From: Pirellula staleyi DSM 6068 | GTDB lineage: Bacteria; Planctomycetota; Planctomycetia; Pirellulales; Pirellulaceae | Assembly: GCA_000025185.1 (NCBI GenBank) | Contig: CP001848.1 | Span: 30,001 to 62,000 of the forward strand | DNA: 32,000 bases | Reading direction: 5' to 3' | Shown: positions 7,660-25,870 of the stretch, piece after piece | How the letters are laid out: every line of letters starts with the position of its first letter | How positions within the stretch are numbered: the stretch's first letter is position 1 | Notes under the pieces: generated by a model | Databases searched by the model: none | What the model saw: the letters and a program-made list of their open reading frames with translations, nothing else | What the model was told of the DNA's origin: nothing | Translations under genes and position numbers: made by a program

Positions 7660-8397
7660 ATGACGACCAATCCCTACGAGCCACCGGAATCACGTTCTCC
7701 CAAGCCAACGTCGCACGGAATAAGAAGTGCTGAACTGCGACGCACTATAGCGACGTTTGTGATTATGTTTGTCGGACCCTTCGCAGCGATCATTGCTTTC
7801 TTTACCACGTGTTCCGCAGTTCCGAAATCCAGCGGGCTGATGGTCGTATCGTTCGTTCTTTCGAGTCTTGCAGCGGGAGTAGCCTACAGCTTGGCTGTTT
7901 ACTGCACACTACCGAAATACCGTACCCTTGCTCATCGGAGTGTAACTCGCAGTTCAAAGGCGATTCCAAGTTCGGCAAGCGAGAGCGAGCCGATTACTTC
8001 CGCGAAGAACGAGGGGATCGAGCGAACCTGTCCCGTTTGTCGCCGCAAGATGCCTGACAATAGTCGCCACTGCGAAAACTGTTTGTATGTCGAGCCAGCA
8101 GCCAAGTCCCTCTATCTCGAAGAAGCCAAAGATTTATCGAGCGTCGAATTAGCTCCGATCGCACCACAGCCGATGTCACGCACCACGATCATGTTGATGG
8201 CCCCAGTTGTGGCCATCTTTCTAACGTGCCTCGCAACACTTGTTGTGGCGATCTCCATCGAGCTAAGCCTATCGAGTCGCTTTGGCATCGAGACATTTGC
8301 CATCGCAGCCTTGGCAGCAATTGCAACAGTGGCGGTTGGCCTCATCGCCACCATCGTTGTCACCTTGCGATTTTACAAATGGTACGAACGGTCGTAG
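7660..8397 (+). CDS. Uncharacterised 4-TM membrane protein, paralogue E1: NPYEPP tail, internal CxxC-x9-CxxC zinc ribbon, AFFxTC helix
   Basis: The track ORF begins at TTG 7618. ATG at 7660 gives MTTNPYEPPESRS, in parallel with the N-termini of the next two genes. TM helices include FVGPFAAIIAFFTTC and MAPVVAIFLTCLATLVV. The ribbon is CPVCRRKMPDNSRHCENC. The C-terminus is VVTLRFYKWYERS. The next gene starts 18 nt downstream. Confidence 0.75.
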   Translation: MTTNPYEPPESRSPKPTSHGIRSAELRRTIATFVIMFVGPFAAIIAFFTTCSAVPKSSGLMVVSFVLSSLAAGVAYSLAVYCTLPKYRTLAHRSVTRSSKAIPSSASESEPITSAKNEGIERTCPVCRRKMPDNSRHCENCLYVEPAAKSLYLEEAKDLSSVELAPIAPQPMSRTTIMLMAPVVAIFLTCLATLVVAISIELSLSSRFGIETFAIAALAAIATVAVGLIATIVVTLRFYKWYERS

Positions 8398-8415
8398 TCC
8401 CAGGCGAGCGAACCG

Positions 8416-9167
8416 ATGCCCGACCCAACACCTACCAACCCCTATGAGCCGCCACCAATTGCCAAGCGCTACTGCACAGCATGTGGCAGCGTGGTGATGG
8501 GCAATGACGCTAAGTGCCCCCTATGCGGCGAAGCAGAATCGCTACCCACCAACCGCTGCGCTCACTGCCAAACACTCTGGCGCAGCGACTATCCGTACTG
8601 CCTTGGCTGTGGCCGCTCACACACCGGCAACTATACGACCTCCGGGAAACACAATGGCATCAACCCTCAACGTGCGGCTGCAAATGTGATGATTGTGATA
8701 GCTGCCCCCTTCGCTGCATTTCTGGCATTCTTTGCCACATGCGGCTTCGGAAATACGGGCTTCGACGGTGGAGCTGGGCAATTTTTCTGGCGAGTCTTGC
8801 AGCTGCAGCAACCTTTTCCTTAGTAGTCTTCTTGACGATTCGGAATCGAAGAGAGCCCAAGCCTACGACTGTCGAAGCTGTCGTACCTACCTCCCCTAAA
8901 ACCGCAACCAATCCACCGCATCACCCGAACAAGTCGCTCGCGCACTCGCGTGAGATTTCACCGCAAACCTGGATACTTATCGCACCCTTTGGCATCATTC
9001 TATTGACGTGCTTTATTTCGTTTATTGTCCTCGTTACCTTTCTCGACAATCGCCACACCTCGATTCAAACGGCAATAGGCTTAGGATTTCTAGTAGCTTT
9101 GGCCGGAATAGTCATCGCGGTGGTTGTCACCTTGCGACTCCTTCAACGTGACGAGAAGCCTCAATAA
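8416..9167 (+). pseudogene. Paralogue E2 of the NPYEPP/zinc-ribbon membrane family, interrupted by a frameshift (or an assembly error, or recoding)
   Basis: Frame A (8416..8823) encodes MPDPTPTNPYEPP, a double ribbon (CTACG..CPLCG..CAHCQ..CLGCG) and the helix AAPFAAFLAFFATC, then runs into WRVLQLQQPFP*. Frame B, open to 9167, continues with FLASLAAAATFSLVVF ... ILIAPFGIILLTCFISF ... VVTLRLLQRDEKPQ, which mirrors the second half of E1. The switch maps to the T5 run at 8782-8786. One extra T would give a continuous protein of about 250 aa (E1 is 245 aa). Confidence 0.65.
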
Positions 9168-9183
9168 CCTTGCGACTGAATTG

Positions 9184-9495
9184 ATGGCCGACCAACCCAT
9201 GAACCCTTACGAGTCGCCGCCACCACGCGAAGCTCCTGAGCCGATTATCCTAGAGCCGGTGAAAGTCGGGTTGGCTCAGCTGATTGTGATTGCTGCGATG
9301 GTGCTGCTGATGTTTCCGCTGCTTGGCCTGGGATTCGGCCTGTCGCACTTCGCCGCAGGGATGCTGGTCGAGCAGAATGCTTGGCTCGGCGAGGTGCGGC
9401 CACATCCGCTCGTGCTGGTGGCCCCCTTCGTCGTGGTGCTCGCGATTTTTTCGACCTGGATCTGGCTGATGGCCCGCATTGCCAGTGGCAGATAG
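9184..9495 (+). CDS. Uncharacterised 2-TM membrane protein, paralogue E3: NPYESPP tail, no zinc ribbon
   Basis: The track ORF starts at TTG 9124. ATG at 9184 gives MADQPMNPYESPPPREAPEP, followed by two hydrophobic helices. The second is LVLVAPFVVVLAIFSTWIWLMARIA, which has the APF signature. It begins 16 nt after the E2 stop. Confidence 0.65.
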   Translation: MADQPMNPYESPPPREAPEPIILEPVKVGLAQLIVIAAMVLLMFPLLGLGFGLSHFAAGMLVEQNAWLGEVRPHPLVLVAPFVVVLAIFSTWIWLMARIASGR

Positions 9496-9556
9496 GTGCA
9501 GCGATTGCTGGCCGGAGCTCTTGTACCGCACTTGCAAGACGACGACATTAGAGGCC

Positions 9557-9970
9557 ATGAGCACTCCCGATCCTTCCGCCCAGCTTGGCCCTGAAACCAC
9601 CTGCCCAACCTGCGGACTCCAGATCCCCGCCGGGAGCTCGCAGTGCATCGTGTGCGCCTATGCCTCCCCGCGGCAGGTCACCGATGCTGATCTGGCACCG
9701 CATCGCTCCAAACTCTCAGTCGGCCGAGTGATGGGGATCACCGCCATCGTGATCCTGATGCTCCCTGCCTCGGCGATCGCGTTTTTCGCCACCTGCTTTG
9801 CGACGGCTGTTTCGCTCGACGCCACCATTCCGCAAAACGATCCGTTTATCTATCTCACCACTGGTTTGCTGGTGGGATCGGTCTGTGGCATTGCCACGTT
9901 CGTCGGACTCATTTTCTGGATCGTGCGACTCGCTCGTCCGCGCAGTGCGCAGCCAGTTCAAAATCCCTAG
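9557..9970 (+). CDS. Uncharacterised 2-TM membrane protein, paralogue E4: N-terminal CxxC-x9-CxxC ribbon and AFFATC helix
   Basis: The track ORF starts at TTG 9479. ATG at 9557 gives MSTPDPSAQLGPETTCPTCGLQIPAGSSQCIVCAY. The TM helix ILMLPASAIAFFATCFATAV is followed by a second helix ending FWIVRLARPRS. It begins 61 nt after E3. Confidence 0.65.
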   Translation: MSTPDPSAQLGPETTCPTCGLQIPAGSSQCIVCAYASPRQVTDADLAPHRSKLSVGRVMGITAIVILMLPASAIAFFATCFATAVSLDATIPQNDPFIYLTTGLLVGSVCGIATFVGLIFWIVRLARPRSAQPVQNP

Positions 9971-10113
9971 CCAATCGTTCGCGTTCTCTCAGCGGAAGCG
10001 AGAGCCGAAACGGGCCTTCGAAGCATACTAGCGACTGCGGCGCAAATCGGTGTACTCTGTGGGGCCAGCTGTTCACGAATCGTTCGTGCCGATCCCTTGC
10101 AGAAAATGCTTCC

Positions 10114-11304
10114 ATGAGTGCCACTCCCCAGCAGATCGCTAGTTACACCGCCGCGCTCGACTTTGCCGAGAATCAGGTGGCCCAGCTCGTCGAGCGTTAT
10201 CCCAACTATTTCCCGATGTACACGGTGCAAGGCAAGTGGCATCACACCGGCGAACTTTGGACGCACTGGACCGACGGTTTTCTCGGCGGCATGATGTGGC
10301 AGTTTTGCCTGCGCGGGCATGAAGCACGCTGGCGCAAGCAGGCCGAGCGATACTCGAAACTGCTCGAACATCGCAAGCTCGACCGAGCGGTGCACGACCT
10401 TGGATTTTTGTTCCTCAGCACCTACTTGCCGTGGTACGAACTCTCTGGCGAAGCTGCCCTGCGCGACACGCTGCTGATCGCCGGTCAAACCCTCTCGCTC
10501 CGCTTCATGCAGCCGGGCAATTTTCTCCGCAGCTTCGTGGCGCACGATTCGCTGTTCATCGACATCATAATGAACGTGCCGATCATTTTTTATGCGTCGC
10601 TCGAAATGCGCGATCGCGAGCTCGCGCGCATCGCCGCTGCTCACTGCCGCACCACGCGCGACACCATTGTGCGCGCCGATGGAAGTACGGCTCACGAAGG
10701 GATCTTTGATCTCGATACGGGCGAGTTCCTCGAACAAACGACTCATCAAGGTTTGCGCGGCGATAGTGCCTGGGCTCGCGGCCTCGCCTGGTCGCTCTAT
10801 GGCTACGCCAAATGCTATGCCCTCACCGGCTGCGATGAGTACCTGGAAGTCTCCGAGCGGAACGCCGACTACTGGCTCGCGCACTTGCCCGAAGATGGCG
10901 TTTGCTACTGGGATTTTGATGCCGATCTGTCGCAGCCAGCCCCCTGGGGGGCGCAGAAGGAATCGTCGGCGGCGGCAATTGCCGCCAGTGGTCTCATCGA
11001 CCTTTCGCTGCTGACCAAAGACCCGGCGAAGTCGGCTAAATATCTCGCCTGCGCGACAAAAATGCTCGATGCGCTCGTGACTCCCGAGTATCTTGCGAGC
11101 GAGACACCAGGCTGGGAAGGGATCCTAAAACATGGCGTTTATCACACCGCCAAGAACCTGGGGGTCGATGAATCGGTGATGTGGGGCGAGTACTTTTTTG
11201 TCGAAGCGCTCACCAAGATGGTGACTGGCCGACAGCCGCGCCTCGCGCCTGAAAAGCTGGCCGACAACCAGGCGCGCTACGCCGCCATTGCCCCTGCGCT
11301 GTAG
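10114..11304 (+). CDS. Glycoside hydrolase family 88-like unsaturated glucuronyl hydrolase, cytoplasmic (no signal peptide)
   Basis: ATG at 10114. The motifs WTDGFLGGMMWQ, VHDLGFLFLS and SAWARGLAWSLYGY are those I associate with the GH88/UGL alpha6/alpha6-barrel family. The ORF is 396 aa. The antisense ORF 9967..10884 is a shadow. Confidence 0.88.
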   Translation: MSATPQQIASYTAALDFAENQVAQLVERYPNYFPMYTVQGKWHHTGELWTHWTDGFLGGMMWQFCLRGHEARWRKQAERYSKLLEHRKLDRAVHDLGFLFLSTYLPWYELSGEAALRDTLLIAGQTLSLRFMQPGNFLRSFVAHDSLFIDIIMNVPIIFYASLEMRDRELARIAAAHCRTTRDTIVRADGSTAHEGIFDLDTGEFLEQTTHQGLRGDSAWARGLAWSLYGYAKCYALTGCDEYLEVSERNADYWLAHLPEDGVCYWDFDADLSQPAPWGAQKESSAAAIAASGLIDLSLLTKDPAKSAKYLACATKMLDALVTPEYLASETPGWEGILKHGVYHTAKNLGVDESVMWGEYFFVEALTKMVTGRQPRLAPEKLADNQARYAAIAPAL

Positions 11305-11355
11305 TTTTTGTTCCCGATTGGCTCCGATGCGTCCACTCCCTCCCAGGCACTCCCC

Positions 11356-13431
11356 ATGAAATACCTACCGCTGTTTTTCGCCTCGGTGACGCTTGTACTA
11401 ACTCTGTCGCACGCAGTGCTGGCCGATGGTCCGGCCGATAACAAAACGGAAAACGTGCGGCGGATTCCCAAACTGGGGATCGAGCTGACAGCCGAGCAGC
11501 GTGCGAGCGTCGAGCAAGCTCTTGCGCCGATTGACGCTGAACTGGTGAAACTCCGCGCGAGCAAATCTCCGCTGGTGCGCGAACTCCTTCCCGACGTCGA
11601 AATTTTTGCAAAGGCGCTGCGCGACGCGCTGCAGTATCAAGAGTTCTTCGACCCGAAGGATCTCGAGTTCGTTCCAAAGTGCGCCGCCGAAGGACTCGCT
11701 CGCGCTCAGTCGCTTGCCAAAGGCGAAGCACCGTGGACCAAGCAGACAGGGCTTGTGGTGCGCGGCTATCGCTCGACACTCGACGACAGCGTGCAGCCGT
11801 TTGGCATGGTGATCCCCGCCAACTATCCCGAAATTGCGGCGGAAAAAGTGCGCTGCGATGTCTGGCTGCATGGCCGTGGCGAAACGCTCAGCGAACTCAA
11901 TTTTCTGCGCGACCGAACCAGCAACGTCGGACAGATTTCACCAGCCGACACCGTGGTGCTGCATCCTTATGGGCGCTATTGCAACGCCAACAAGTTTGCG
12001 GGGGAGATCGATATTCTCGAGTCGCTGACAGCGGCGAAACGAATGTATCGGATCAACGAGCGGCTCGTCGCGATGCGTGGATTTTCGATGGGTGGCGCTG
12101 GTGCGTGGCAAATGGCGGTCCACTATCCCGATATGTGGTTCGCCGCCAATCCAGGGGCAGGATTTTCAGAAACGCCCGACTTTTTGAAAGTGTTCCAGAA
12201 CGAAACGCTCCAGCCTCGCTGGTGGGAAAAGCAGCTGTGGCAGTGGTATGACTGCACCGTTTGGTCGAGCAATCTGGTGGAGTTGCCGACGATTGCTTAC
12301 AGCGGCGAAATCGACAAACAGAAGCAAGCGGCCGACATTATGGCGATCGCGATGCAGCAGCGGCGTTTGAATCTCGAGCACATCATCGGCCCCCAAACGG
12401 CGCACAGCATTCACCCCGATTCGAAGAAAGAGATCGAAGCGCGTCTAGCGTCGATTGCTTCAGTTCCACGCCCGGCAGCGATGCCCCATCTGCATCTCAC
12501 CACCTACACGCTTCGCTATCCGCAAGTCGACTGGATCCGTATCGAAGGGATGCAAGAGCACTGGACGAAAGGGACGGTGGCCGGACTTGTCTCTGAAGGT
12601 GGCATTCGGATCGATACCACAGGGGTTACCGACCTGGCGATCCATTTCAAAGCCGGAACAGCTCCGATCTACCCACGTGGCAATGTGAAGGTGACGCTCG
12701 ACCAGCAAGAGCTGTTTCTACCTGGCGTGAAGAGCGATCGTAGTTTGTCGGCTGCGTTCTACCTCGATGGAAAAACATGGATGCTGGGGAAACGCGACAC
12801 TGGTAAGCAGCTCCGCAAAAAGCCTGGTCTCCAAGGACCGATCGACGATGCCTTTCTCTCGCGCTTTTTGTTCGTGAAGCCGAGTGGTAAGAGCAAGCAT
12901 GAACTAGTCGAGAAGTGGACGCAGAGTGAACTGGCTCGCGCGATCGAACATTGGCGACGTCACTTCCGTGGCGAAGCGCGGGTGAAACTCGACAGCGAAG
13001 TGACGGCCGAAGATATTGCCGATTCGAACCTCATTCTGTGGGGAGATGCGACGAGCAATTCGCTGATTGCGAAAATCAACGATCGTTTGCCGGTCCGCTA
13101 CAGCGACGACACGATTGTGGCTGGCGAGGCGTCGAAGCCGAGCAATCAACACGCGCTTGTGGCGATCTATCCGAATCCAGAAAACCCCGAGAAGTATGTG
13201 GTGCTCAACAGCAGCTTCACGTTCCGCGACTATGCCTACCTGAACAACGCGCGGCAGGTTCCGATGCTCCCCGACTGGGCGATTGTCGATCTCACAACAC
13301 CTCCAGGTGGTGTCTGGCCGGGGAAGATTGTCGAGGCCAACTTTTTTGACGAAGCGTGGCAACTCAAACCGTATCGCGACGTGAACAGCACCTACGACGA
13401 CTATCAGCCTCTCGCGGTTCCACAGCCGTAA
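11356..13431 (+). CDS. Secreted alpha/beta-hydrolase fold protein (esterase or S9-like peptidase)
   Basis: The track ORF starts at TTG 11308. ATG at 11356 gives a clean signal peptide, MKYLPLFFASVTLVLTLSHAVLADGP. The nucleophile-elbow GxSxG motif appears in RGFSMGGAGAW. The ORF encodes 691 aa. Confidence 0.82.
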   Translation: MKYLPLFFASVTLVLTLSHAVLADGPADNKTENVRRIPKLGIELTAEQRASVEQALAPIDAELVKLRASKSPLVRELLPDVEIFAKALRDALQYQEFFDPKDLEFVPKCAAEGLARAQSLAKGEAPWTKQTGLVVRGYRSTLDDSVQPFGMVIPANYPEIAAEKVRCDVWLHGRGETLSELNFLRDRTSNVGQISPADTVVLHPYGRYCNANKFAGEIDILESLTAAKRMYRINERLVAMRGFSMGGAGAWQMAVHYPDMWFAANPGAGFSETPDFLKVFQNETLQPRWWEKQLWQWYDCTVWSSNLVELPTIAYSGEIDKQKQAADIMAIAMQQRRLNLEHIIGPQTAHSIHPDSKKEIEARLASIASVPRPAAMPHLHLTTYTLRYPQVDWIRIEGMQEHWTKGTVAGLVSEGGIRIDTTGVTDLAIHFKAGTAPIYPRGNVKVTLDQQELFLPGVKSDRSLSAAFYLDGKTWMLGKRDTGKQLRKKPGLQGPIDDAFLSRFLFVKPSGKSKHELVEKWTQSELARAIEHWRRHFRGEARVKLDSEVTAEDIADSNLILWGDATSNSLIAKINDRLPVRYSDDTIVAGEASKPSNQHALVAIYPNPENPEKYVVLNSSFTFRDYAYLNNARQVPMLPDWAIVDLTTPPGGVWPGKIVEANFFDEAWQLKPYRDVNSTYDDYQPLAVPQP

Positions 13432-13498
13432 TCACAAACGCCAGCCCCGTGCACCTGAGCCATTGCATCGGCTGACGGGCTGCTAATGATCTTGCTGA

Positions 13499-14662
13499 TT
13501 AACTACCGAGTAGTTCGGGCCAAAGGGCGTCGCTGATCAGGAGTCCGCGACGCGTGAGACGAAGCCGCTCGCCAGCGATTTCGAGCATCCCCAGGGCCAG
13601 GAATTCTTCGAGCGCGCGGCCGCCGAGCTGCTCGATGCGATAGCCGGTGGCACCCAAAAATTCCCCGCGATGGACGCCGCCGAGTTGCCGGAGTCCAAAC
13701 ACCAAACGCTCGCGCGCCGAGTCCTCGGGGCTCAGCGTTTCGCTCTCGGCGATTGGCGATTCACCTGCTCGCAGCCGCGCAAGGTAGGTGGTCGTGCTCC
13801 GATGATTTACGCTCCGCGTACCGCCGAGAAAACTGGCCGCACCGGGGCCCGCCGCGAAGAACGGCTGATGTCGCCAGTAGGTTTGATTATGCCGGCACGC
13901 GAAGCCGGGGCGGGCAAAATTCGAGACTTCGTAATGCTCGTAGCCGTTTGCGGCAAGCGTATCGATGGCCGTTTCATACATCACTGCTTCGAGCTCTTCG
14001 CCCGCTTTGGTAAGCTCGCCACGCTCGGTTCGCATGAAGAACGGAGTCCCTTTTTCGATGGTCAAACCATACGTCGACACATGCTGCGGCGTGAGAGCAA
14101 TGGCTTGCGCGAGATCGCTCTTCCAGTCGTCGAGTGTTTCACCGGGGGTGCCGAAGATCAGGTCAAGCGAAACGCTCGAAGCAAAACGTTTGCACTCGGC
14201 GACAGCGCGAGCGATTTGCGCGGCATCGTGATCGCGTTCGAGGACCCGCAGCTTCTCGGCGCGAAACGACTGCGCGCCAAGACTCACCCGCGTGACCCCG
14301 TAGCTGGCCAGTACAGCAGCGCGCTCGCGATCGATGTCGGCAGGATTCGCTTCCACCGAAAACTCGGCATCTTCAGCGAGCGGAAACCAGCGCAGCACCA
14401 GTTCGAGCAAACGATCGAGCTCGCGCGGCGGCAAATGCGTCGGTGTACCACCACCCAGGAACAGCGTGTCGACCGCGCGCGAGCGCTCAAGCCACGAGAG
14501 CTCGAGCGCCAAGGCTTCGAGGTAGGAGCCAATCAGGTCATCGCGCCCCGCAATCAACGTAAAGTTGCAGTAACCGCAGCGATGACGACAAAACGGCACA
14601 TGGACATACGCGCTGCGAGGCTGGGGCTCTAGACGATCGACGACAGCGGCTTGAGTGGTCAT
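13499..14662 (-). CDS. hemW: Radical SAM heme chaperone HemW (HemN-like, oxygen-independent coproporphyrinogen oxidase family)
   Basis: YVHVPFCRHRCGYCNF carries the CxxxCxxC radical-SAM cluster motif near the N-terminus. LFLGGGTP and the 387-aa length are typical of HemW. ATG at 14662. It lies 6 nt downstream of the preceding gene. Confidence 0.92.
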   Translation of the reverse strand: MTTQAAVVDRLEPQPRSAYVHVPFCRHRCGYCNFTLIAGRDDLIGSYLEALALELSWLERSRAVDTLFLGGGTPTHLPPRELDRLLELVLRWFPLAEDAEFSVEANPADIDRERAAVLASYGVTRVSLGAQSFRAEKLRVLERDHDAAQIARAVAECKRFASSVSLDLIFGTPGETLDDWKSDLAQAIALTPQHVSTYGLTIEKGTPFFMRTERGELTKAGEELEAVMYETAIDTLAANGYEHYEVSNFARPGFACRHNQTYWRHQPFFAAGPGAASFLGGTRSVNHRSTTTYLARLRAGESPIAESETLSPEDSARERLVFGLRQLGGVHRGEFLGATGYRIEQLGGRALEEFLALGMLEIAGERLRLTRRGLLISDALWPELLGS

Positions 14663-14668
14663 CGTGGG

Positions 14669-15508: not shown

Positions 15509-15585
15509 GCGTCGTGCAAAATCTTCAAAGTTCGTCGTGAAACATCCGCGCGCCGCTGTCGTGCGATGCGCGCCAGGGAGACAGG

Positions 15586-17520: not shown

Positions 17521-17657
17521 CAAAAAGTTCTCCGGTGGGTGTCGCGCCGGGAAATGACTGCGACAGAGGAGGAAATTGCGGGAGACTCGATTACCTGATC
17601 AACGGCCAGTCACGTTCGTCTCGAAACATCGAGCACTGGTCAACACTTGGGAATGTC

Positions 17658-19658
17658 CTAGGCGCGCTCGTGAATCAATTCACATTCGGGGAGCGATTCG
17701 AGGAACGTACGACCATAAGCCTTCGTTTGCATGCGGGGATCGAGAATCACCACCATCCCCGAATCGCGCGAACTCCGAATCAGCCGACCGAAACCTTGCC
17801 GCAGTTTTATCACCGCTTCAGGCAGTTGGTAATCCCGGAACGGATTACCCCCCGATTCGCGAATCGCTTCCAGGCGGGCTTCGAGCAGCGGCTGATCGGG
17901 AACGCTAAAGGGGAGTTTGGGAATAATGACGTTTTGGAGCGCATCGCCGGGAACATCGACCCCTTGCCAAAAACTGTCGGTTCCCAGCAGCACGCCGCGT
18001 GGATTTTCTTTGAACCGAGCGAGCATTTGAGTCCGTGGCTCGTGGCCTGCCTGGCTGTAGAGGGCGAGGTTGTTTTCAGCGAGAAAACGGGTCAACAGCG
18101 AGGCTGTGCGCTCGAGATGGGCGTAGCTGGTGAACAGGACAAACGCGTGACCATCGGTCCGCTCGATGTAGCGTTTCATCTGCTCGGCGGCAGCGACTTC
18201 AAACTTATCTTTTTCGCTACCAGGGTCGGGGAGTCCGCTGACGAGAATCAGCTGCGCTTGCTCGCGATAGTTGAACGGGCTCCCGACGCGGATGGCGTCG
18301 GATTGCGTCAGACCGATGCGCGATTTGTAGTAGTCGAACGACCCTTTGCCGGTGGCAAGTGTGGCCGACGTGAGGATCACGCTGCGAGTTTTCTCGAACA
18401 GGTGCTCGCGGAGTGCCGGCCCGACATCGATCGGCGCAGCGGAGAGTTCGACGCGCGGCTTACCGGCGCGCGACGCTTGCTGCGAAATCCAGTAGACGCT
18501 TCCTGCCGTGTCTTGCGAAATCCAGTGCGAAATTTCGCCGGAAATCAGCTGTAAACGATCGGCGGCAGAAAGAAAATTTTGACGTTCGGATTCATCGTCG
18601 ATTTGCTCGCCACAGCGGCGCACTTCGCGCGAAAGTTTCAGAAGCGAGGGGCTTAGCAAGTTGTCGACTTGATCGGGCTCGCGAATTCGTCCGTTTTTGT
18701 GGTCGCGCTGCTGAGCCAGTGTCGCGCAGTCGTGAAAAAAGTCATCCGCGCGAAGATAGCACTGCATCACCAGCTGCTGAGCGGTGGTGAGTTTCCGCGA
18801 GACAAGCAAACCCTTGTTCGTACGATCGTTGTAAAGTCGGCTGAGCAGGTATTGAATCTGCCCGCTGGTGATCGAGAGCCCCAGGTGATCGCCAGCCACT
18901 TGCTCGATGGTGTGGGCCTCGTCGAGGATCGCAGCGTCGTAGTCGGGCAGAATGCTTGCGCCGACGCGGCGAAGCGCCAGATCGCTGAAGAACAGCGCGT
19001 GGTTGACCACTAAGATCTGCGCGTGATGCACGCGGCGCCGCGCGCGGTAGTAAAAGCACTCGCTATAGGTGGGGCAGTTGCGTCCCAGACAGTTGCCGCT
19101 GTCGCTCGCCACTTCATCCCACACGGTGCTCTTGGGCTTGATCGTCATGTCGCTCAGCGAGCCGCCACCGGTCTCTTTCGACCAGGCAACAAGGTCGCGC
19201 ACTTGCTCGAATTCTTCCTCGGTGCTGAAGAGGGTTCGGGCGCGCTCGGCCGCATATTGCAGGCGGCGGAGGCTGACATAGTTGCCACGCCCTTTCACCA
19301 GCACGGCGGTGAACTCGCGCGGAATCACACTCCGCAGCAGAGGCAGATCCTTGGCCAGCAGCTGTTCTTGCAAACTGATGGTGTGGGTTGAGATGACGAT
19401 CCGTTTGCGAGGCCCTTCTTCATCCCCTTCGCTAGCCTGCGCATTTTCAGCCTGATCGGAAGTGGCGTGCAAAATGGCTGGGACAAGATAGGCAAAACTC
19501 TTACCAACACCGGTCCCTGCTTCTGCCACCAAATGACGGCCAGCCGCCAAGGCCTTCGCAATGCCGCCCGACAGGTCGAGCTGCTGAGGTCGGTGTTCGT
19601 AGCCTGGAAGTCTGGCGGCGATTCGGCCGGCTGGTCCAAGGATCTCTTCAGGAAGCAT
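17658..19658 (-). CDS. dinG: ATP-dependent DinG/XPD-family (DEAD_2, Fe-S) DNA helicase
   Basis: Walker A is AEAGTGVGKSFAYLVP and the DEAH box is ILDEAHTIE. A Cys cluster (NCLGRNCPTYSECFY) sits in the Fe-S insertion. C-terminal helicase motifs are VLFTSY, GTDSFWQGVD and LRQGFGRLIRS. The ORF is 666 aa with ATG at 19658. Confidence 0.92.
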   Translation of the reverse strand: MLPEEILGPAGRIAARLPGYEHRPQQLDLSGGIAKALAAGRHLVAEAGTGVGKSFAYLVPAILHATSDQAENAQASEGDEEGPRKRIVISTHTISLQEQLLAKDLPLLRSVIPREFTAVLVKGRGNYVSLRRLQYAAERARTLFSTEEEFEQVRDLVAWSKETGGGSLSDMTIKPKSTVWDEVASDSGNCLGRNCPTYSECFYYRARRRVHHAQILVVNHALFFSDLALRRVGASILPDYDAAILDEAHTIEQVAGDHLGLSITSGQIQYLLSRLYNDRTNKGLLVSRKLTTAQQLVMQCYLRADDFFHDCATLAQQRDHKNGRIREPDQVDNLLSPSLLKLSREVRRCGEQIDDESERQNFLSAADRLQLISGEISHWISQDTAGSVYWISQQASRAGKPRVELSAAPIDVGPALREHLFEKTRSVILTSATLATGKGSFDYYKSRIGLTQSDAIRVGSPFNYREQAQLILVSGLPDPGSEKDKFEVAAAEQMKRYIERTDGHAFVLFTSYAHLERTASLLTRFLAENNLALYSQAGHEPRTQMLARFKENPRGVLLGTDSFWQGVDVPGDALQNVIIPKLPFSVPDQPLLEARLEAIRESGGNPFRDYQLPEAVIKLRQGFGRLIRSSRDSGMVVILDPRMQTKAYGRTFLESLPECELIHERA

Positions 19659-19974
19659 TGCGGAAGTGGGACCAGAGAGGAAGTTGCCAGGAAGACGCGG
19701 GACAGCAGTAAGAAAAAAACGTTCTTTTCTTCTTCAAAGATGCACGAGGCTCGAGCGAATTGCCCTCCAAGGCTCGTGGTGGAGGAATGTGGTGGTGGAT
19801 GGCCAGATGTGGTCGAGCGGAATAGGTAAGAGCATAGCGGAAGAAATTGGTTTACGGATGCCCTTTCGCGAGGGGGGAATTAAACTAATGGCGGGCAGAG
19901 TCCTTTGCCAGGTGCGACCGCAAGAGCGGCTGGGGCGAACGACTTGAGGGAACAAGTGGAACGGGTGCGAGCGG

Positions 19975-20262
19975 ATGACGATCGAATTCTCGTGCTTCGA
20001 TTGCGGACAACTCGTCAAAACTCCCGCTTCGGCGGCGGGTAAGAAGGGTCGTTGTCCCCATTGCGGCACCATCGTTCAGATACCGGCTGAAGCTCCCAAG
20101 CCAGCCCCTCCTCCTCCGCCGCCACCTCCACCAGCCCCACCCGCAGCAGCCGTGGCGATTGAGTTTCCCTGCCCCAAGTGCAACGGACTGGTGCGGACTC
20201 CGCTGTCAGCTGCGGGCAAAAAGGGACGCTGCCCCCACTGCACCACAGTGGTGCAGATTCCG
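19975..20262 (+). repeat. Intragenic tandem duplication of the zinc-ribbon module, separated by a poly-proline run
   Basis: Protein-level repeat: aa 1-36 (19975-20082) and aa 60-96 (20152-20262) share the pattern IEFxCxxCxxLVxTPxSAAGKKGRCPHCxTxVQIP. The spacer PKPAPPPPPPPPPAPP is at about 20095-20139. The DNA copies have diverged, so the duplication is old. Confidence 0.75.
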
Positions 20263-21795
20263 GGGACTTCTCCAGCAGCGCTAGCTCCCACCACAGCAGC
20301 TCCTTCAGCTGCGGCTAAAAAGCCGGTGCCAGAGCCCGTGGCTGCGAAGCCGACACCACCGCCACCTGCCAAACCGAAGTTCGACGACGAACTCACGCTG
20401 GCCGACGATCCCGATCATCCGATTACGACCCCAGCCCCCAAGCCAGCCCCTAAGCCGACTCCCGACCCAGCCAAGGGGGTTAAGCCAGCCGCTGCTAAAC
20501 CGGCCACGCAGCCAGCTGCAGCGCAGCCGTCGGCCAAGCCTGCTGCGCCCGCCAAGCCATCAGGGGCTAAGCCGACAGCACCTGCTGCTGCGTCTTCAAC
20601 CAAACCGACCGTGAAGCCCGCAGCTGCCAGTGGTGCGAAACCGGCGGCCACCACCCCGGCAGCGACGAAGCCGGTCGCTAAACCAACCACCCCTGGCAAA
20701 CCTGCTGCGGGGGGCAAAACGATTCCGGTCGCCAAACCGATCGCCGCGCCGGGAGCGAAGGCCCAACAGCCGACCAACGAACAGTTCGACGATCTGCTTC
20801 CACTGGAAGAAGAAGAATCGCTCGAGGATCTTCCTGTTCTCGAAACCAACGACCTCGGTGGGCTAACACCGCTCACCGATCTGGGGCCGATCCCTGGCAC
20901 AGGACTCCCGGCTATCGGCGCGCCGATGCTCCCCGGAGCGAGCACCGGTGGCACCCTGTTCGCCGCGATGCCCCTGGCCGCTGGACAAGCCACGCCGTTT
21001 GGCACCGACCCAGCCGACGCAGGTTTTCTGCTGGCGAGCGATCCGACCCTTGGCTTACCCGCCTTGCCCCCCAATCCCTATGCGTCACCCGGGGTCAGTT
21101 TGCCATCCGCGAGCCCGGGGCTTGGTTCATCGTTTGTCAGTGGCCCCCGAGAACGGACGGGACTTCCGTGGGATATCGAAGTCTCCGCCGCTGCCTACTG
21201 GCAAACAGCCAAGATGCTGGTCTTCAGCCCATCGCAAGGTTTTGCCGTCATGCACCGGACGGGTGGCGTGAGTGGTCCGCTGGGCTACGCGCTCATCGGA
21301 CTCATGATCGGCCCGCTGGGCGCCCTCTTGTTGATCTATCTCTTTATGATGCTGGTGCTCCTTGTCTCCACCGGCAACTTTGAAGCGATGGTGGGGCTCA
21401 CGCTCATCTTTGCAATCTACGGAATATCGACCTCCGCGGGGATGATGGTGAGTGGCTGTATTGGGCTCCTTGTCGGGGCTGGAATCTCGCACCTCTGCTT
21501 GATGCTGGTCGGTGGCGCGACGCGCCCCTACGAAACCACGTTTCGCGTGCTGGCTTACACCAACGGCTCGGTGGCGCTCATCGGATTCATTCCGTTCATT
21601 GGTGCCATCATCCAAATCGTTTTGACGATTGTGCTGCTGATTAATGGCTACGCCTCGGCACACGGCATCAGCGCGGGACGAGCGGCGCTCGCTGTCTTTT
21701 TGCCTTTGATCGTACTGGGAGGATGTATCTTCGTCGGCATTATGATGCTGACAGGTCTCGTCGCCGCATCGGGACCAAACCCCTCCTCGTTTTAA
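19975..21795 (+). CDS. Uncharacterised membrane protein A: two MJ0042-like zinc ribbons, Pro/Ala/Lys-rich linker, NPYASP and GLPW motifs, Yip1-like polytopic C-terminal domain
   Basis: ATG at 19975. IEFSCFDCGQLVKTPASAAGKKGRCPHCGTIVQIP is repeated as IEFPCPKCNGLVRTPLSAAGKKGRCPHCTTVVQIP. A run of nine Pro follows, then a linker of about 160 aa rich in KPA/KPT, then an acidic patch. PPNPYASP is at 21067-21090 and GLPWD at 21160-21174. The C-terminal domain has about 5 TMs and the motifs HLCLMLVGG and TFRVLAYTNGSVA. Confidence 0.8.
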   Translation: MTIEFSCFDCGQLVKTPASAAGKKGRCPHCGTIVQIPAEAPKPAPPPPPPPPPAPPAAAVAIEFPCPKCNGLVRTPLSAAGKKGRCPHCTTVVQIPGTSPAALAPTTAAPSAAAKKPVPEPVAAKPTPPPPAKPKFDDELTLADDPDHPITTPAPKPAPKPTPDPAKGVKPAAAKPATQPAAAQPSAKPAAPAKPSGAKPTAPAAASSTKPTVKPAAASGAKPAATTPAATKPVAKPTTPGKPAAGGKTIPVAKPIAAPGAKAQQPTNEQFDDLLPLEEEESLEDLPVLETNDLGGLTPLTDLGPIPGTGLPAIGAPMLPGASTGGTLFAAMPLAAGQATPFGTDPADAGFLLASDPTLGLPALPPNPYASPGVSLPSASPGLGSSFVSGPRERTGLPWDIEVSAAAYWQTAKMLVFSPSQGFAVMHRTGGVSGPLGYALIGLMIGPLGALLLIYLFMMLVLLVSTGNFEAMVGLTLIFAIYGISTSAGMMVSGCIGLLVGAGISHLCLMLVGGATRPYETTFRVLAYTNGSVALIGFIPFIGAIIQIVLTIVLLINGYASAHGISAGRAALAVFLPLIVLGGCIFVGIMMLTGLVAASGPNPSSF

Positions 21796-22022
21796 GTTCG
21801 AGGAACCCCAAAAACTTAAGCTTTCAACTATCGCGGCGTGCCTAGCGGCCGAGTACAATCCCGACGCTGTAAGGCCGCGCCGAAAACACCCTGCCATGGA
21901 TGAGAAGTCGACTTCAGCTTCCGATCGAGCACCGGTCTCACAGCCAAGGCCTACAGCCCCTCTCCGGCCCGCAGCCTTTTGCTTCCCTTCGATGCACAAC
22001 CTAGCTACTTGGAAATCGCCGG

Positions 22023-23108
22023 ATGGCTATTGAATTTCGTTGCGATCAGTGTGGTCAATTGCTGCGCGTTCCGGATAACACAGCAGGCAAAAGCGCCCGC
22101 TGTCCGAAATGCCAAGCGATGATGACGATTCCCGCGCAGTCGCCTCCAGGCGGTGCTGGCCCAGCAACCGGTCCGGCAACTCCCCCTGCTGCACCTGTTT
22201 CGCAGTTTCCAAGCACACCCACTGGCCCCGTCGACCAGCCGGCACCACTCCCCACGCTCGGAGCCCCCACGAGTTCCAGCCCGTTTGGTTCACCACCAGC
22301 AGGCGGCTCGCTCTTTGAAGGGGCTCCCCTCAGCCCACCCCCGAAGCCAGCCGGCAATCCTTTTGGCGAGGGAGGTATGGGGTCACCTCCGGGTGCCAAC
22401 CCGTTTGGCCAACCGTCCGAAGCCAACCCTTATGCTTCACCACTGAGCATCTACACTCCGCAATCAGGCCAGCAAGGTCTTCCGTGGGAAGTAAAGGGGC
22501 AAAACTTCGGCACCTGGATGGAGACCACAAAGCTGTTCATCTCGGATTCAGCCCGGGCTTTCACCATCATGCATCCACGTGGTGGGATCGGTGGCCCGAT
22601 GGTGTTTGCCCTGCTGGGGATGTCTATCGGTGCCGCTGGTGGTTTGTTTTGGAACTTAGTGATGCTTCTGGGCCTCGGGATTGTTGCAGGAGCCAATGGC
22701 CAAGGCGATGCAGCAGCCCCCCTGGCCATTCAAGCCGTCACCCAAGTGGGCGCTAGCATCATCGGCACGCTGCTGGGAGCCACGCTCGGGCTTTTGTTCC
22801 AGTCGGCCATTATTCACGTATGCTGCATGGTCGTGGGTGGTGGAAAAACGGGTTTCGATGCCACATTTCGCGTCTTGGCCTACTCCAACGGCGCTCTCGC
22901 GTTCCTGCAATGGATTCCGATCGCGGGTGCCTTAGTTCTCGCGATTTGGGTGCTCGTTCTGGTGATCGTTGGCCTGGCCAAAGTGCACGAAATGCATGTC
23001 GGCAAAACGATCCTGGCGGTATTCCTCCCCGTGATCGTCTGCTGTGTTGTCACCCTGGGCATTGTGGCGCTCGCCGGTGGAGCAGGCGTGCTGATGAACG
23101 CACGCTAA
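22023..23108 (+). CDS. Uncharacterised membrane protein B, paralogue of A: one MJ0042-like ribbon, Pro-rich linker with NPF/NPF/NPY triplet, GLPW, Yip1-like domain
   Basis: ATG at 22023 gives MAIEFRCDQCGQLLRVPDNTAGKSARCPKCQAMMTIP. The motifs GNPFG, ANPFG and ANPYASP span 22356-22442. GLPWEV follows. The membrane domain is clearly homologous to A: FTIMHPRGGIGGP, HVCCMVVGG, TFRVLAYSNGALA, ILAVFLPVIV. Confidence 0.8.
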   Translation: MAIEFRCDQCGQLLRVPDNTAGKSARCPKCQAMMTIPAQSPPGGAGPATGPATPPAAPVSQFPSTPTGPVDQPAPLPTLGAPTSSSPFGSPPAGGSLFEGAPLSPPPKPAGNPFGEGGMGSPPGANPFGQPSEANPYASPLSIYTPQSGQQGLPWEVKGQNFGTWMETTKLFISDSARAFTIMHPRGGIGGPMVFALLGMSIGAAGGLFWNLVMLLGLGIVAGANGQGDAAAPLAIQAVTQVGASIIGTLLGATLGLLFQSAIIHVCCMVVGGGKTGFDATFRVLAYSNGALAFLQWIPIAGALVLAIWVLVLVIVGLAKVHEMHVGKTILAVFLPVIVCCVVTLGIVALAGGAGVLMNAR

Positions 23109-23174
23109 CCGCTTCGGAGAGCCTGTTTCTGAGTTAAACCTGCGACCGAAATAAATCTTAGCTTTCCTCTTCTG

Positions 23175-23207
23175 GCACCTCGCGGCCATTGCTGCGAGGT
23201 GCTTTTT
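23175..23207 (+). terminator. Rho-independent terminator after gene B
   Basis: GCACCTCGC (23175-23183) pairs with GCGAGGTGC (23194-23202) across a 10-nt loop, followed by TTTTT (23203-23207). Confidence 0.7.
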
Positions 23208-23302
23208 GCTACGCAAACATGCTCTAGCTTTGGCCTTGCGCTTTCTCTCCAGCGCAGGCTAGCAATCCTTGGCTCCTGCCCCTCGCGACAAGATGCACCG
23301 CG

Positions 23303-24187
23303 ATGAATTCGAGTCCCGCTGGAGAGAATCCCTTTGCCTCCCCGCAGCCGCTGCGCGCCAGCGAGATTGCCAGCGAAGAGCGGGCGACTCATCCCTTTGC
23401 CGATAGCCCCGAGACCCCGGCGGATATCACCATCGAGGCGATTCCACCCGGCTTGCCGTGGAACCATCGGCTGGGGCTCTTTAGCTGGCTGAAGACCGCC
23501 GAGAGGCTGTTCTTCACGCCGCGCAAGGCGATGGAGTCCTATCGCCCAGCCACCTCGCCATGGGGTGCCTATGGCTTTCTTGCTATTGGCCTCCTCCTCT
23601 CGCTCGGACTCACAGCGGCCATCTGCTACCTCGTTTACCACCTGGAATTTGGTTCCTCTTCTCAGCCCCAAGACCAAATCTCTGAACTTCTCGCAGCCTC
23701 TGACAAACAACTGCTCATCAGCACCCTGCAGTCGATGGCTGCGATCACCCTGCTGTTGGTGCTCGTGATCATTCCGCTGCGCGTGCTGTTAACGCACGGG
23801 CTCTTAAAACTGATGGGAACCTGCCGCTTCAGCATGACACGCACGGCGGAAGCGATTTTCCTTTCGCTCGGCGCAGCCCAGCTCGTGAGTTGGACCACGA
23901 AACCCTTACGGTATGTCCTACCGATCATGAAACTCGAGGAGCTCTCACTCCTGCTGAGCGGAGTGGCGGCCGGGCTCTTGCTCTGGCAGTTCTACCGCGA
24001 GATTGTCGGTCTAGCGGTGGTGCAGCGAATCTCGATGCGACGCAGTTTGGTCGTCAATCTGCTGGTGCAAATCATTATCGGCCTCGCGATCTTCGTGGTG
24101 GCTTTAGGGTACATGACCTACATCGATCTGCAGCGCATCTCGGCAGCCTCCGAGACCTTCAATCCATCAGCAGCCCAGCGCCCTTGA
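23303..24187 (+). CDS. Uncharacterised membrane protein C: NPFASP tail, GLPW, divergent Yip1-like polytopic domain, no zinc ribbon
   Basis: ATG at 23303 gives MNSSPAGENPFASPQPL. PPGLPWNHRLGLFSWLKTAERLFF parallels the GLPW-plus-helix entry of A and B. Five or so hydrophobic helices follow. HGLLKLMGTCRFSMTRTAEAIFLSLG aligns loosely with HVCCMVVGGGKTGFDATFRVLAYSNG of B. Confidence 0.7.
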   Translation: MNSSPAGENPFASPQPLRASEIASEERATHPFADSPETPADITIEAIPPGLPWNHRLGLFSWLKTAERLFFTPRKAMESYRPATSPWGAYGFLAIGLLLSLGLTAAICYLVYHLEFGSSSQPQDQISELLAASDKQLLISTLQSMAAITLLLVLVIIPLRVLLTHGLLKLMGTCRFSMTRTAEAIFLSLGAAQLVSWTTKPLRYVLPIMKLEELSLLLSGVAAGLLLWQFYREIVGLAVVQRISMRRSLVVNLLVQIIIGLAIFVVALGYMTYIDLQRISAASETFNPSAAQRP

Positions 24188-24340
24188 TCGCGTATGTTTC
24201 TAATACGTTTTTGCAGCTGCTGGGTCAGACTGGCAGACCCCGGTGCGACCGGCAAATTCGTTACGTTCCGAAATTACTAGCCAGAGCCCCTAGTAAGTGA
24301 TTAAACTACGGACGTTGCAACTTCTCGTCGGGGATTTCTC

Positions 24341-25870
24341 ATGACCATTGTCGCCTGTCCGCGTTGCCGAGATTCCGTTCGGATTCCGGCCCGTGCTTCC
24401 AATACCGCCATCGTCCGCTGCCCACTCTGTGAGGAAGAATTTCCGATCACCGAGGCCTACGGACAGATTCCCGAACTCGAGATCATCTCGGGCGCACTTC
24501 CCACGTCGAGCTACGCAGCCGACGATGCGGGCGAACTCAACGCCTACGCCTCCCCCGAGCCAACGGAATACGCCGTTGCTCCTGCCGGTGACGGCGTGTT
24601 CGGCACCACAGGCCCCAGCGGCTCCACGGCCGTGATGCCTGTGTCGGGCGTGAAGGGGAAGATTCGCAAAAAGAAAGAAAAATCGGCGATCGCCGAAATG
24701 TTCAAAGTGGTGATGGGGGGCGTAGTCGGAATCGGTCTCGCCCTGGTCGTCCTCTGGTGGGGCTTTAAGACCGACCCGATGGGGATCATTCCTTACGTCC
24801 CATCGTGGGCTGCGTTTATTGTTCCACCCGCGATGCGCGCCGCACCCAAGCCCGACAACACCGCCGGCGGCGCGGGAAATCAGCTCGCTCAGAACAATGG
24901 CATCGACACGAGCGGCAGTCCTGTTCCGGTGGTTCCGAACACACCAGCGGGCGGAGGTTTCATGCCCGCTGATCCTGCCAGCGGCAACAATGCCAGTGGC
25001 GGTTCCTTCGGCTCGGCTGCTGGCGAGCTAACACCTCCTACCGAACTCCCCCCCTTCGATCCCTTGGCCAATACCAGCGGCGAAATGGAACTCCCCGATC
25101 TCGGAACTCCGACGATCGAAACACCTCCCGAACTCGGTCCACCCGCCGAACTCCCCGGTCTTGATCCATCGAGCGTCCCCTCAATCGATCCGCCAGCGAC
25201 CGATCCGCTGAACACCGATCCACCGAGCTCGCCCAATCCAGCTCCACTTCCGGGGCTCGATCCGATGCCAACAGAGCCACAGCCTCTTCCCGAAGCCCCC
25301 CCGGGAACGGAACCTGTGATCTACACCGCTGCCGATTTGCTCAGCTCGGTTTCGAAAGCAGCGGAAGCTCGCAACGTCTTTAAGAACGCCGATCCTGCGG
25401 ATCGCGCTGGCCGTCAAGAACTGGCTCGCCAGATGTATGCCTCGGTCGCTGCGACGGCCAAGATCCTTCCGTCACTCAGCCTCGAAGATGCCGACAACGC
25501 CGATGCTGTAACAGCCGTCTCGGATCTCCTCACGTCGATTGCTACCGAAGTGCCCGAGACCGTCGTCGGTTTTCTCGGCCGCGAACGTTACGAAGCAAGC
25601 GAAGGAGATTCGCAAATGCTGGTGGCGGGCGAGGTGATCGACATTCGCGCTGTAGGCAGCATGTTCGAGTGCGTTGTGAAAATGAAGACCAAAGACAATC
25701 TCGAAGTCACGCTTCTCTCGAGCAAAAACCCGCAAGACAAGTGCGCTGTTGGCGACACGGTGATGGTGGTCGGCAGCAAAGTGGTCGACCCCGCCAAGAA
25801 CGTCGGTGGCTATGAAGGCATGGCCCCTAAAGTGGTCACGTGGGACTACGGCGTGAAGATCGCCAAGTAG
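24341..25870 (+). CDS. Uncharacterised single-pass membrane protein D: MJ0042-like ribbon, NAYASP, Lys-rich stop-transfer plus TM, Pro-rich region, C-terminal globular domain
   Basis: ATG at 24341 gives MTIVACPRCRDSVRIPARASNTAIVRCPLCEEEFPI. ELNAYASPEP follows. KGKIRKKKEKS precedes the TM helix VVMGGVVGIGLALVVLWWGF. The Pro-rich stretch spans roughly 24850-25300. The C-terminal region of about 180 aa ends in a beta-rich segment (MLVAGEVIDIRAVGSMFECVVKMKTKDNLEVTLLSS...VMVVGSKVV). A strong terminator lies 52 nt downstream. Confidence 0.75.
   Translation: MTIVACPRCRDSVRIPARASNTAIVRCPLCEEEFPITEAYGQIPELEIISGALPTSSYAADDAGELNAYASPEPTEYAVAPAGDGVFGTTGPSGSTAVMPVSGVKGKIRKKKEKSAIAEMFKVVMGGVVGIGLALVVLWWGFKTDPMGIIPYVPSWAAFIVPPAMRAAPKPDNTAGGAGNQLAQNNGIDTSGSPVPVVPNTPAGGGFMPADPASGNNASGGSFGSAAGELTPPTELPPFDPLANTSGEMELPDLGTPTIETPPELGPPAELPGLDPSSVPSIDPPATDPLNTDPPSSPNPAPLPGLDPMPTEPQPLPEAPPGTEPVIYTAADLLSSVSKAAEARNVFKNADPADRAGRQELARQMYASVAATAKILPSLSLEDADNADAVTAVSDLLTSIATEVPETVVGFLGRERYEASEGDSQMLVAGEVIDIRAVGSMFECVVKMKTKDNLEVTLLSSKNPQDKCAVGDTVMVVGSKVVDPAKNVGGYEGMAPKVVTWDYGVKIAK

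Follow-up and report, generated by a model that had tools for sequence, protein, structure and literature searches.

Results

Two gene arrays share a short N-terminal element

The DNA analysed here, called the window throughout, is a 32 kb stretch of the Pirellula staleyi DSM 6068 genome (contig CP001848.1, positions 30,001 to 62,000), and positions are counted from its first letter. Two plus strand arrays of four genes each, E1-E4 and A-D, code for proteins with predicted transmembrane (TM) segments, and a short element built on Asn-Pro-Tyr or Asn-Pro-Phe (NPY or NPF) recurs in their N-terminal tails. A preliminary description had reported the motif in seven of the eight proteins, as N[PA][YF][AE][SP]P, and had proposed a docking peptide for a common partner; all seven strings proved to be exact in letters and in position (Table 1). 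Upstream of the E array are a P-II gene and a divergent SpoU methylase gene, and the A-D array is flanked by a divergent DinG-type helicase gene and a convergent DegT aminotransferase gene. The genes around and between both arrays are unrelated housekeeping genes.

Table 1. Genes and motif sites of the two arrays, in positions of the window (aa, amino acids; approximate positions are marked ~).
Feature	Position	Strand	Description
E1	7660..8397	+	245 aa, 4 TM; motif at residues 4-9; zinc ribbon in TM2-TM3 loop, ~8023-8082
E1 motif NPYEPP	7669..7686	+	Exact; NPYKSP in 48%-identity homologue P0144
E2	8416..9167	+	Paralogue of E1; N-terminal motif; double zinc ribbon, ~8473-8613
E2 motif NPYEPP	8437..8454	+	Exact string
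E3	9184..9495	+	103 aa, 2 TM; motif at residues 7-12; no zinc ribbon
E3 motif NPYESP	9202..9219	+	Exact; orthologue in L205
E4	9560..9970	+	136 aa, 2 TM; N-terminal zinc ribbon, ~9602-9661
E4 CAYASP	9653..9670	+	Degenerate motif position; Cys is the last zinc ligand
A	19975..21795	+	606 aa; zinc ribbons, ~19990-20088 and ~20158-20262; linker 20311-20739; motif; Yip1, ~21217-21735
A motif NPYASP	21073..21090	+	24 residues ahead of conserved GLPW, start of Yip1 domain
B	22023..23108	+	361 aa; zinc ribbon, ~22032-22130; linker predicted to be disordered; two NPF and one NPY; Yip1 from GLPWE at 22476
B NPFGEG	22356..22373	+	First upstream NPF copy; P113 and F114 at least 90% conserved in family
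B NPFGQP	22398..22415	+	Second upstream NPF copy
B motif NPYASP	22425..22442	+	Residues N135-P140; predicted disordered (pLDDT <50)
C	23303..24187	+	294 aa membrane protein; no zinc ribbon; divergent Yip1-like domain, GLPW at 23450
C motif NPFASP	23327..23344	+	Exact string; counterparts in sister genome
D	24341..25870	+	509 aa; zinc finger, ~24353-24448; acidic tail; single TM; Pro-rich spacer; C-terminal domain
D NAYASP	24539..24556	+	Doubtful member of the motif class
Example 20-mer of a motif-bearing tail			GANPFGQPSEANPYASPLSI

The motif exceeds chance expectation

Apart from these seven strings, the regular expression gave no match in any of the six frames of the window. The recurrence had been judged unlikely to be accidental, and shuffled controls bear this out: 0.017 matches per window were expected from nucleotide shuffles and 0.003 proteins with a match from within-protein residue shuffles, compared with the 7 observed. 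The expression was fitted after the fact, and tests independent of it were added. These made use of 80 loci (1.17 Mb), mostly from metagenome-assembled genomes of Pirellulaceae, which had been fetched via the ribbon pattern of B. In this sample the string NPYASP was again in strong excess, occurring 10 times against a mean of 0.01 for the 359 other orderings of its residues. Synonymous codons vary among the motif copies of the window, which argues that selection acts on the peptide and not on the DNA.

Two other origins of the strings were considered. The codon differences between copies led to rejection of a DNA-level repeat or an RNA element, and poly-proline translational stalling was discarded since NPYASP, the most frequent form, contains no Pro-Pro.

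Conservation of the motif in orthologues and families

The family of B was aligned from 33 sequences of 30-49% identity. Its linker of about 100 residues is not alignable, yet P136 never varies, and conservation is 90% or more at N135, Y137, A138 and P140; across residues 38-149 the only columns to reach this level are these five together with P113 and F114. The pattern NPYx[SAPT]P was found in 64 of 66 B relatives that lack GYF, and at least one NPF lies upstream of NPY in 51 of the 66. In the RDD family, which was reached via a match sharing the N-terminal module only, NP[YF]x[SAPT]P lies ahead of the RDD domain in 20 of 24 members, and those without a ribbon carry it at the extreme N-terminus (for example MTSESENPYQAPRAEV).

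Conservation extends to the E array. A single real homologue of E1 was recovered among 1.84 billion representatives (P0144, 48% identical), and it starts MTTNPYKSP, the first six residues, MTTNPY, being shared with E1. Its contig, L205, carries genes for P-II, SpoU, an E1-like, an E3-like (MPAPTPINPYESP) and an E4-like protein, the last with CAYASP identical to that of E4; no counterpart of E2 was found on L205. The only detected relative of E4, in L075, has NPYKAP about 13 residues ahead of the aligned TM block, the same distance as CAYASP. As an observation on the side, the E3-like gene of L205 has an E2-like N-terminus (MPAPTPINPYESP).

For the A-D array, a sister genome keeps the order DinG, A, B, C1, C2, D, DegT. 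The motifs there read NPYSSP in A, NPFGE...NPYAHS in B, NPYSSQ in one C-like gene and NPFEAP with NPFGDT in the other, and NAYQSP in D; an NP[YF] or NAY core is thus present in all five genes, and the trailing residues drift. Among other A-type orthologues, NPYSSP is seen in L003 and NPYASS in L008.

The real motif sites are therefore those of E1, E2, E3, A, B and C. E4 is degenerate, and D is doubtful because NAYASP recurs in one close relative only, so the single motif class proposed for all seven proteins holds for six of them and is doubtful for D, which has 32 other homologues without it. The preliminary description had named two outcomes that would speak against the motif, a frequency like that of random Pro-rich regions and lack of conservation in orthologues; neither was found for E1, E3, A, B and C, and D is not conserved.

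Anatomy of the motif and its arrays

The anatomy was derived from 116 distinct instances, conditioned on NPY only. Position +1 after NPY is A in 69% and Q in 12%, +2 is S in 75%, A in 12% and P in 6%, and +3 is P in 99%; ahead of NPY, position -1 is L or V in 43% and position -2 is S or P in 56%. NPF is followed by GD, GE, AG or AD in 67 of 105 copies, and NPFGD (27), NPFAD (11) and NPFGE together make up 53 of the 105. Where a protein has at least two NP[FY] elements (79 proteins), the one nearest the membrane is always NPY, and the median spacing between elements is 16 residues. The order is thus zero to three NPF[GA][DE], then one NPY[AQ][SA]P, then 12-30 residues, and then the membrane domain, whose start is marked by GLPWE at residue 152 in B or by an 'LASR' box in RDD proteins.

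Such arrays could also act without any specific receptor, the aromatic residues serving as stickers and the Pro/Gly/Ala/Ser-rich stretches as spacers in a weak self-association or association with the membrane surface that gathers the proteins into patches. The several aromatic elements at regular spacing (the median given above), the low-complexity tails and the tandem arrays of paralogues would fit, as would the actinobacterial-type carriers L200 and L185, whose P/Q/G/Y-rich tails hold four to five NPY/PY copies. A simple sticker, however, should tolerate varied contexts, and N, P and the +3 Pro show little or no variation (100% or close to it) among the 116 instances; in addition, the NPF-then-NPY order is fixed and many carriers (E1, E3, P0101) have a single copy. 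We consider a receptor-free role unlikely.

Position, topology and predicted disorder of the motif

The motif had been placed in a cytoplasmic, disordered segment shortly before the first TM segment, and the predictions made here agree with each part of this. In the window, between 19 and 78 residues separate the motif (CAYASP for E4) from the first predicted TM segment in eight of eight proteins, and 20-78 residues in the seven other than E4. The tails consist to 58-70% of P/G/S/A/Q/N/T/E, and the K/R bias is consistent with a cytoplasmic N-terminus in seven of the eight, so that the motif, by inference, probably faces the cytoplasm.

The same placement was seen in the related loci. NPYx[SAPT]P occurs in 35 of 6,562 six-frame open reading frames (ORFs), and in 33 of these 35 a TM segment lies downstream and none upstream, compared with a membrane-protein background of 39% (p = 1e-11). 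The regions following the motif fall into at least nine clusters unrelated by BLAST, including Yip1, DUF4190, DUF975/UPF0259, RDD and several unnamed ones.

Single chains of B and of the RDD protein P0084 were modelled with AlphaFold2, from 33 and 16 sequences respectively. In B, the predicted local distance difference test score (pLDDT) is about 80 in the ribbon, 45-60 over residues 41-150 with the motif region (132-149) below 50, and above 90 from residue 151, in the Yip1 domain. In P0084 it is about 35 over residues 39-87, which include NPFADM and NPYQSP. The motif is thus predicted to lie in a disordered segment in two independent families, between domains that are predicted to fold. No docking of the motif within the chain was predicted in B or P0084, in these single-chain models from shallow alignments.

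These results bear on chance and composition as an explanation, by which Pro-rich tails yield NPY-like strings and the regular expression was tuned to them. The post hoc expression and the unconserved instance in D speak for it, as do matches to NA[YF]..P, NPFGDP and NPYQ[AS]P in soluble proteins, which are clearly chance, and a null though underpowered tripeptide test in random metagenome tails. They are opposed by the permutation and shuffle controls, the near-invariance of the motif in orthologues of about 40% identity, the almost constant +3 Pro and the placement exclusively ahead of the first TM segment (33 of 35 ORFs). Chance is refuted for E1-E3, A, B and C and is possible for D alone; as a general account it is extremely improbable.

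Zinc ribbons and membrane modules at related loci

By Pfam matches, A (two copies), B, D, E2 and E4 have N-terminal four-Cys zinc ribbons, and E1 has one in a loop. At the related loci a ribbon lies upstream of the motif in 27 of 30 motif proteins, a count inflated by the retrieval of these loci via the ribbon; in the window this applies to A, B, D, E2 and E4. E3, C and P0101 carry the motif and have no ribbon. The same ribbon is found without the motif on membrane proteins of Phycisphaerae, Kuenenia and Fuerstiella, which makes ribbon and motif separable. In this ribbon-biased sample the motif is concentrated in Pirellulales-like genomes.

The association raises the possibility of a switch of the GltJ type, in which the NPF/NPY linker would be bound by a zinc ribbon or GYF_2 domain, whether of its own protein or of a neighbour. 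This binding would keep the protein autoinhibited or oligomeric until a second ligand opens it. Besides the 27 of 30 locus proteins, both window clusters mix ribbon-bearing and ribbon-less proteins. One protein (L014:4856-5548) has the order zinc ribbon (ZnR), GYF_2, NPYLSP, DUF4190, and in the Yip1 family GYF_2 and ZnR with NPF/NPY appear as alternatives, the motif being present in none of 13 GYF_2 members and in 64 of 66 others. There is also a precedent, as the ZnR of GltJ binds an 18-residue linker motif and ZnR-GYF modules occur in planctomycetes (PMC11135422). Against these stand the ribbon-less carriers, to which about 10 credible metagenome carriers can be added, the motif-less ribbon proteins of the three other groups, and the retrieval bias already mentioned. 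AlphaFold2 docked nothing on the ribbon in two families, although weak, fast-exchange contacts like those of GltJ are not expected to show. In a search of the Protein Data Bank (PDB) the ribbon of B matched the GltJ ZnR (7zok) at E = 0.4, which is not significant, and the YebS/PqiA and RNA-polymerase ribbons scored higher. Taken together, a switch of this kind appears unlikely.

One Yip1 lineage (P0042-P0056) has GYF_2 and a linker of about 25 residues in place of the ribbon, the long linker and NPF/NPY.

Motif genes stand in tandem arrays at the related loci, and the order DinG-A-B is syntenic in at least four of them. The pair formed by the divergent DinG-type helicase gene (17658-19658, minus strand) and the A-B Yip1 genes (19975-23108, plus strand) was seen to be conserved in several Pirellulaceae genomes (L001, L003, L004, L006, L048 and L081). 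Genes for OmpH and FG-GAP proteins are found further upstream of this pair in the closer relatives, with no functional link evident.

Other features of the window

The Yip1 domains of A and B scored 43.9 and 45.1 bits in Pfam (cut-off 28.6); C and the remaining window proteins fell below that cut-off. C had no Pfam match, and its post-motif region was placed in the Yip1 cluster by BLAST. No named membrane domain was found by Pfam in E1-E4 and D, no Pfam or NCBIfam name applies to the C-terminal domain of D (about 150 residues), and NCBIfam had no model for the window motif proteins except generic ribbons. None of the eight proteins matched GYF or GYF_2 in Pfam. The ribbon of E1 was detected through weak DZR/Zn_Ribbon matches over residues 122-141.

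The post-motif region of E2 clusters with that of E1. Because of a frameshift near 8750-8790 the gene reads as overlapping ORFs at 8416-8823 and 8514-9167; it may be a recent duplicate in decay, or the frameshift may be a sequencing error. The TM region of E4 is related to L075:9404-9745. The linker of A (residues 113-255, about 140 residues) is Pro/Ala/Lys-rich and of low complexity, with KPAA/AKP-type repeats, and it is a local maximum of guanine-cytosine content in the window (0.62).

A second repeated element, [GE]LTPL, was noticed in A-type linkers (L008:9647-11188, L001:2353-4683, L009:950-2530) and may be another linear motif; the window copy lies at 20863-20874 (A residues 297-300), and L008 has four GLTPLG. 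The family of D conserves [DE]Y[RK]L[AS]GG about 10 residues after NAYASP (EYAVAP, 24566-24583, in D) and a KKKEKS-type basic patch (24668-24685) directly ahead of the single TM segment. Unrelated to the motif, a 909-residue Met-zincin protein with DUF5117 and DUF4953 is encoded at 3689-6418 on the plus strand, and L025 has a copy of 67% identity at its edge.

Occurrence beyond the planctomycetes

It had been suggested that NPYxxP tails may be widespread in bacteria. A metagenome scan was made with GC-biased codons for NPYQ[AS]P only, and is thus biased to GC-rich organisms and to one variant. Of 120 arbitrary sites, 14 lie just ahead of a first TM segment, compared with 1.6% for random positions (p = 1e-8). 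When only matches in the coding frame were counted, 10 of 29 fell in pre-TM tails compared with 7%, an enrichment of about five-fold. None of the carriers has a ribbon, and in most the motif is no more than a few residues away from the start codon. Bax1-I/YccA, rhomboid, DUF7847, DUF4190 and DUF454 are among their families, and one carrier is from Frigoribacterium (Actinomycetota). The homology search with RDD returned almost exclusively planctomycete-like sequences. The five-fold enrichment and the Frigoribacterium carrier speak for the wider occurrence, and three proteobacterial RDD proteins without the motif speak against it.

In the rhomboid protease of L173, an N/Q/P/Y-rich N-terminal tail of about 170 residues carries NPYLRP, NPYIKN and NPYQSP before the first TM segment.

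The Bax1-I/YccA carrier, which bears the Joint Genome Institute (JGI) name 'FtsH-binding integral membrane protein', brings up a role in turnover or quality control. The motif would then label the tail for recognition by a membrane protease or by an adaptor of one, as in entry to FtsH, and would set the abundance of the protein. FtsH begins the degradation of membrane proteins at their cytoplasmic tails, as known from work on YccA and SecY, and the distance from motif to membrane domain stays short regardless of the part upstream. Initiation by FtsH, however, is described as a matter of the length of the tail and not of its sequence, multicopy arrays of fixed order are atypical of degrons, and nothing in the data links the motif to any protease. 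A turnover tag is very unlikely.

Discussion

A candidate docking motif for a partner in trans

The motif is real, under purifying selection and independent of the family of the membrane domain. It behaves as a short linear motif does, forming a conserved island in a fast-evolving segment, within predicted disorder, and recurring on unrelated proteins. We interpret the NPF/NPY elements as short linear docking motifs on disordered cytoplasmic tails of small inner-membrane proteins, read in trans, and put the probability of this interpretation at about one half. Each element would form an Asn-Pro turn exposing one aromatic side chain. An array of zero to three distal NPF[GA][DE] elements about 16 residues apart and one proximal [SP][LV]NPY[AQ][SA]P, 12-30 residues from the membrane domain, would bind a shared soluble or peripheral partner with low affinity and in a multivalent manner. 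Such a partner would be encoded elsewhere in the genome and would recruit, cluster or regulate otherwise unrelated membrane proteins. Protein binding in trans and the identity of the partner are points that we infer only from these properties.

Several observations weigh against docking in trans. A search for a partner beside the arrays returned no recurrent soluble family, only shared synteny (DinG, OmpH and others) and ribbon proteins, and no binding partner or candidate emerged from the neighbourhoods; the docking peptide proposed in the preliminary description is supported in part, by its short-linear-motif behaviour. Weak binding within the chain would be compatible with single-chain AlphaFold2 models on shallow alignments, and the ribbon-based retrieval inflates the association of motif and ribbon. 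The motif is lost or degenerate in the A-type orthologues of L001, L004 and L009, and NAYASP of D has a match only in the sister of 66% identity (NAYQSP), with nothing at this place in 32 other homologues; the loss in the A type, and the fact that the motif was never fixed in the D family, make it dispensable in some contexts. The remaining points concern distribution, and because of them occurrence outside the planctomycetes is suggested at most. About 4 of the 14 pre-TM metagenome matches look spurious; actinobacterial tails are P/Q/Y-rich, so that composition may contribute; the three RDD proteins mentioned above, from plasmids or chromids of Pseudoalteromonas, Vibrio and Neisseria, lack the motif; and an underpowered comparison of NPY with its permutations in random metagenome tails gave three matches, all from one protein.

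Full-text searches returned no paper with the motif strings in this context, nor one linking NPF/EH to planctomycetes. Apparently, the NPF/NPY array is an undescribed bacterial short linear motif with a fixed internal order.

Planctomycetes are known for complex membrane invaginations, and the array could be given a more far-reaching meaning, as a code for cargo or adaptors, read by a hub that organises bacterial membranes. An EH-like, BAR-like or new-fold protein of Pirellulales would read the Asn-Pro-aromatic turns of the NPF-NPF-NPY arrays and would sort or cluster Yip1, RDD, DUF975, DUF4190 and orphan membrane proteins. The eukaryotic NPF/EH and NPY/I-BAR systems would then have a bacterial counterpart, of independent or very old origin; we regard this reading as quite unlikely.

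Docking in trans, as the reading preferred here, has more general consequences. Much of the wiring of eukaryotic cells relies on short linear motifs, and few such motifs have been defined for bacterial housekeeping proteins. The motif marks the tails of many DUF-type membrane proteins, and a 10-residue peptide could serve as a handle for a common partner. The Asn-Pro-aromatic turn at its core is also recognised by eukaryotic proteins of endocytosis and membrane bending, and identification of the reader would therefore answer a question open to test. It would decide between an adaptor-type organisation of planctomycete membranes and a mundane use such as turnover or clustering.

Comparison with known systems

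Docking peptides with an Asx-Pro-aromatic core are established as NPF with EH domains, NPFx(1,2)D with Sla1 (PMC2199253), NPF with POLE2 (PMC12808100) and NPY with I-BAR (PMC7145657, PMC3591105). The likeness of the planctomycete element to the EH, Sla1, POLE2 and I-BAR ligands appears to lie at the Asn-Pro-aromatic core, as judged from the letters, and membership in these classes is not claimed.

NPF is read by the EH domains of Eps15, EHD and Pan1, and NPFx(1,2)D is an endocytic signal read by the SHD1 domain of Sla1 (PMC2199253, PMC12370899). The planctomycete arrays share with these ligands the Asn-Pro-Phe core, the several copies in disordered cytosolic segments and the acidic residue that often follows, and the carriers are likewise membrane-associated, here including members of the Yip1 family. 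NPFx(1,2)D is matched literally by NPFGD and NPFAD, 38 of the 105 NPF copies of the relatives, whereas the window copies NPFGEG, NPFGQP and NPFASP lack the Asp. Here the best conservation is that of NPYx[SA]P, an element outside the EH ligand class, and in the window the N-P-F core is present only in the distal copies of B and in C. There is no evidence of vesicle traffic in the planctomycete case. To our knowledge no EH or SHD1 domain is known in this bacterial proteome, in which no search was aimed at them.

The NPY of the Escherichia coli effector Tir (ELM class LIG_IBAR_NPY_1) is bound by the I-BAR/IMD domains of IRSp53 and IRTKS (PMC7145657, PMC3591105). Tir is likewise a membrane-inserted protein that presents N-P-Y, with an unphosphorylated Tyr, in a disordered cytoplasmic tail, and its reader works at the membrane. 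The receptor of Tir, however, is a host protein, and the planctomycete motif requires the +3 Pro (99%) and lies N-terminal to the membrane domain; the two are compared here at the NPY core. We know of no bacterial I-BAR protein. The spacing of NPxY (PTB) and PPxY (WW) ligands does not apply because the Tyr directly follows the Pro; position -1 is mostly L/V, and position -2 mostly S/P.

Eukaryotic Yip1 and Yif1 act in traffic between endoplasmic reticulum (ER) and Golgi, and Yip1 corresponds to Pfam PF04893. A and B are members of this family by Pfam, and C is a divergent relative. The motif is, however, not a property of Yip1, since at least eight other modules are preceded by it and the GYF_2+Yip1 relatives lack it, and the tests imply no Rab-like partner. 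Archaeal and bacterial Yip1 homologues are also found in cassettes with other small membrane proteins (PMC5898192).

The Myxococcus protein GltJ provides a similar architecture, a cytoplasmic ZnR-linker-GYF switch in which a linker motif within the ZnR-linker module of a membrane protein recruits a partner: the ZnR binds the motif (L86-L103), which also binds MglA-GTP (PMC11135422). The authors reported that the ZnR-GYF architecture is common in planctomycetes, with undefined ligands, and that there is no MglA/AglZ link outside Myxococcales (PMC11135422). An N-terminal four-Cys zinc ribbon, a long flexible linker with a discrete motif and a membrane domain are found likewise in A, B, D and E2, and the L014 protein has ZnR, GYF_2, NPY and TM segments. 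The window proteins differ in that they lack GYF, and E1 (with its ribbon in a loop), E3 and C lack an N-terminal ribbon; the comparison with GltJ is one of architecture. Seen from this side, the picture of ZnR-linker(-GYF) modules would be refined, with the NPF/NPY array named as a candidate linker ligand in planctomycetes.

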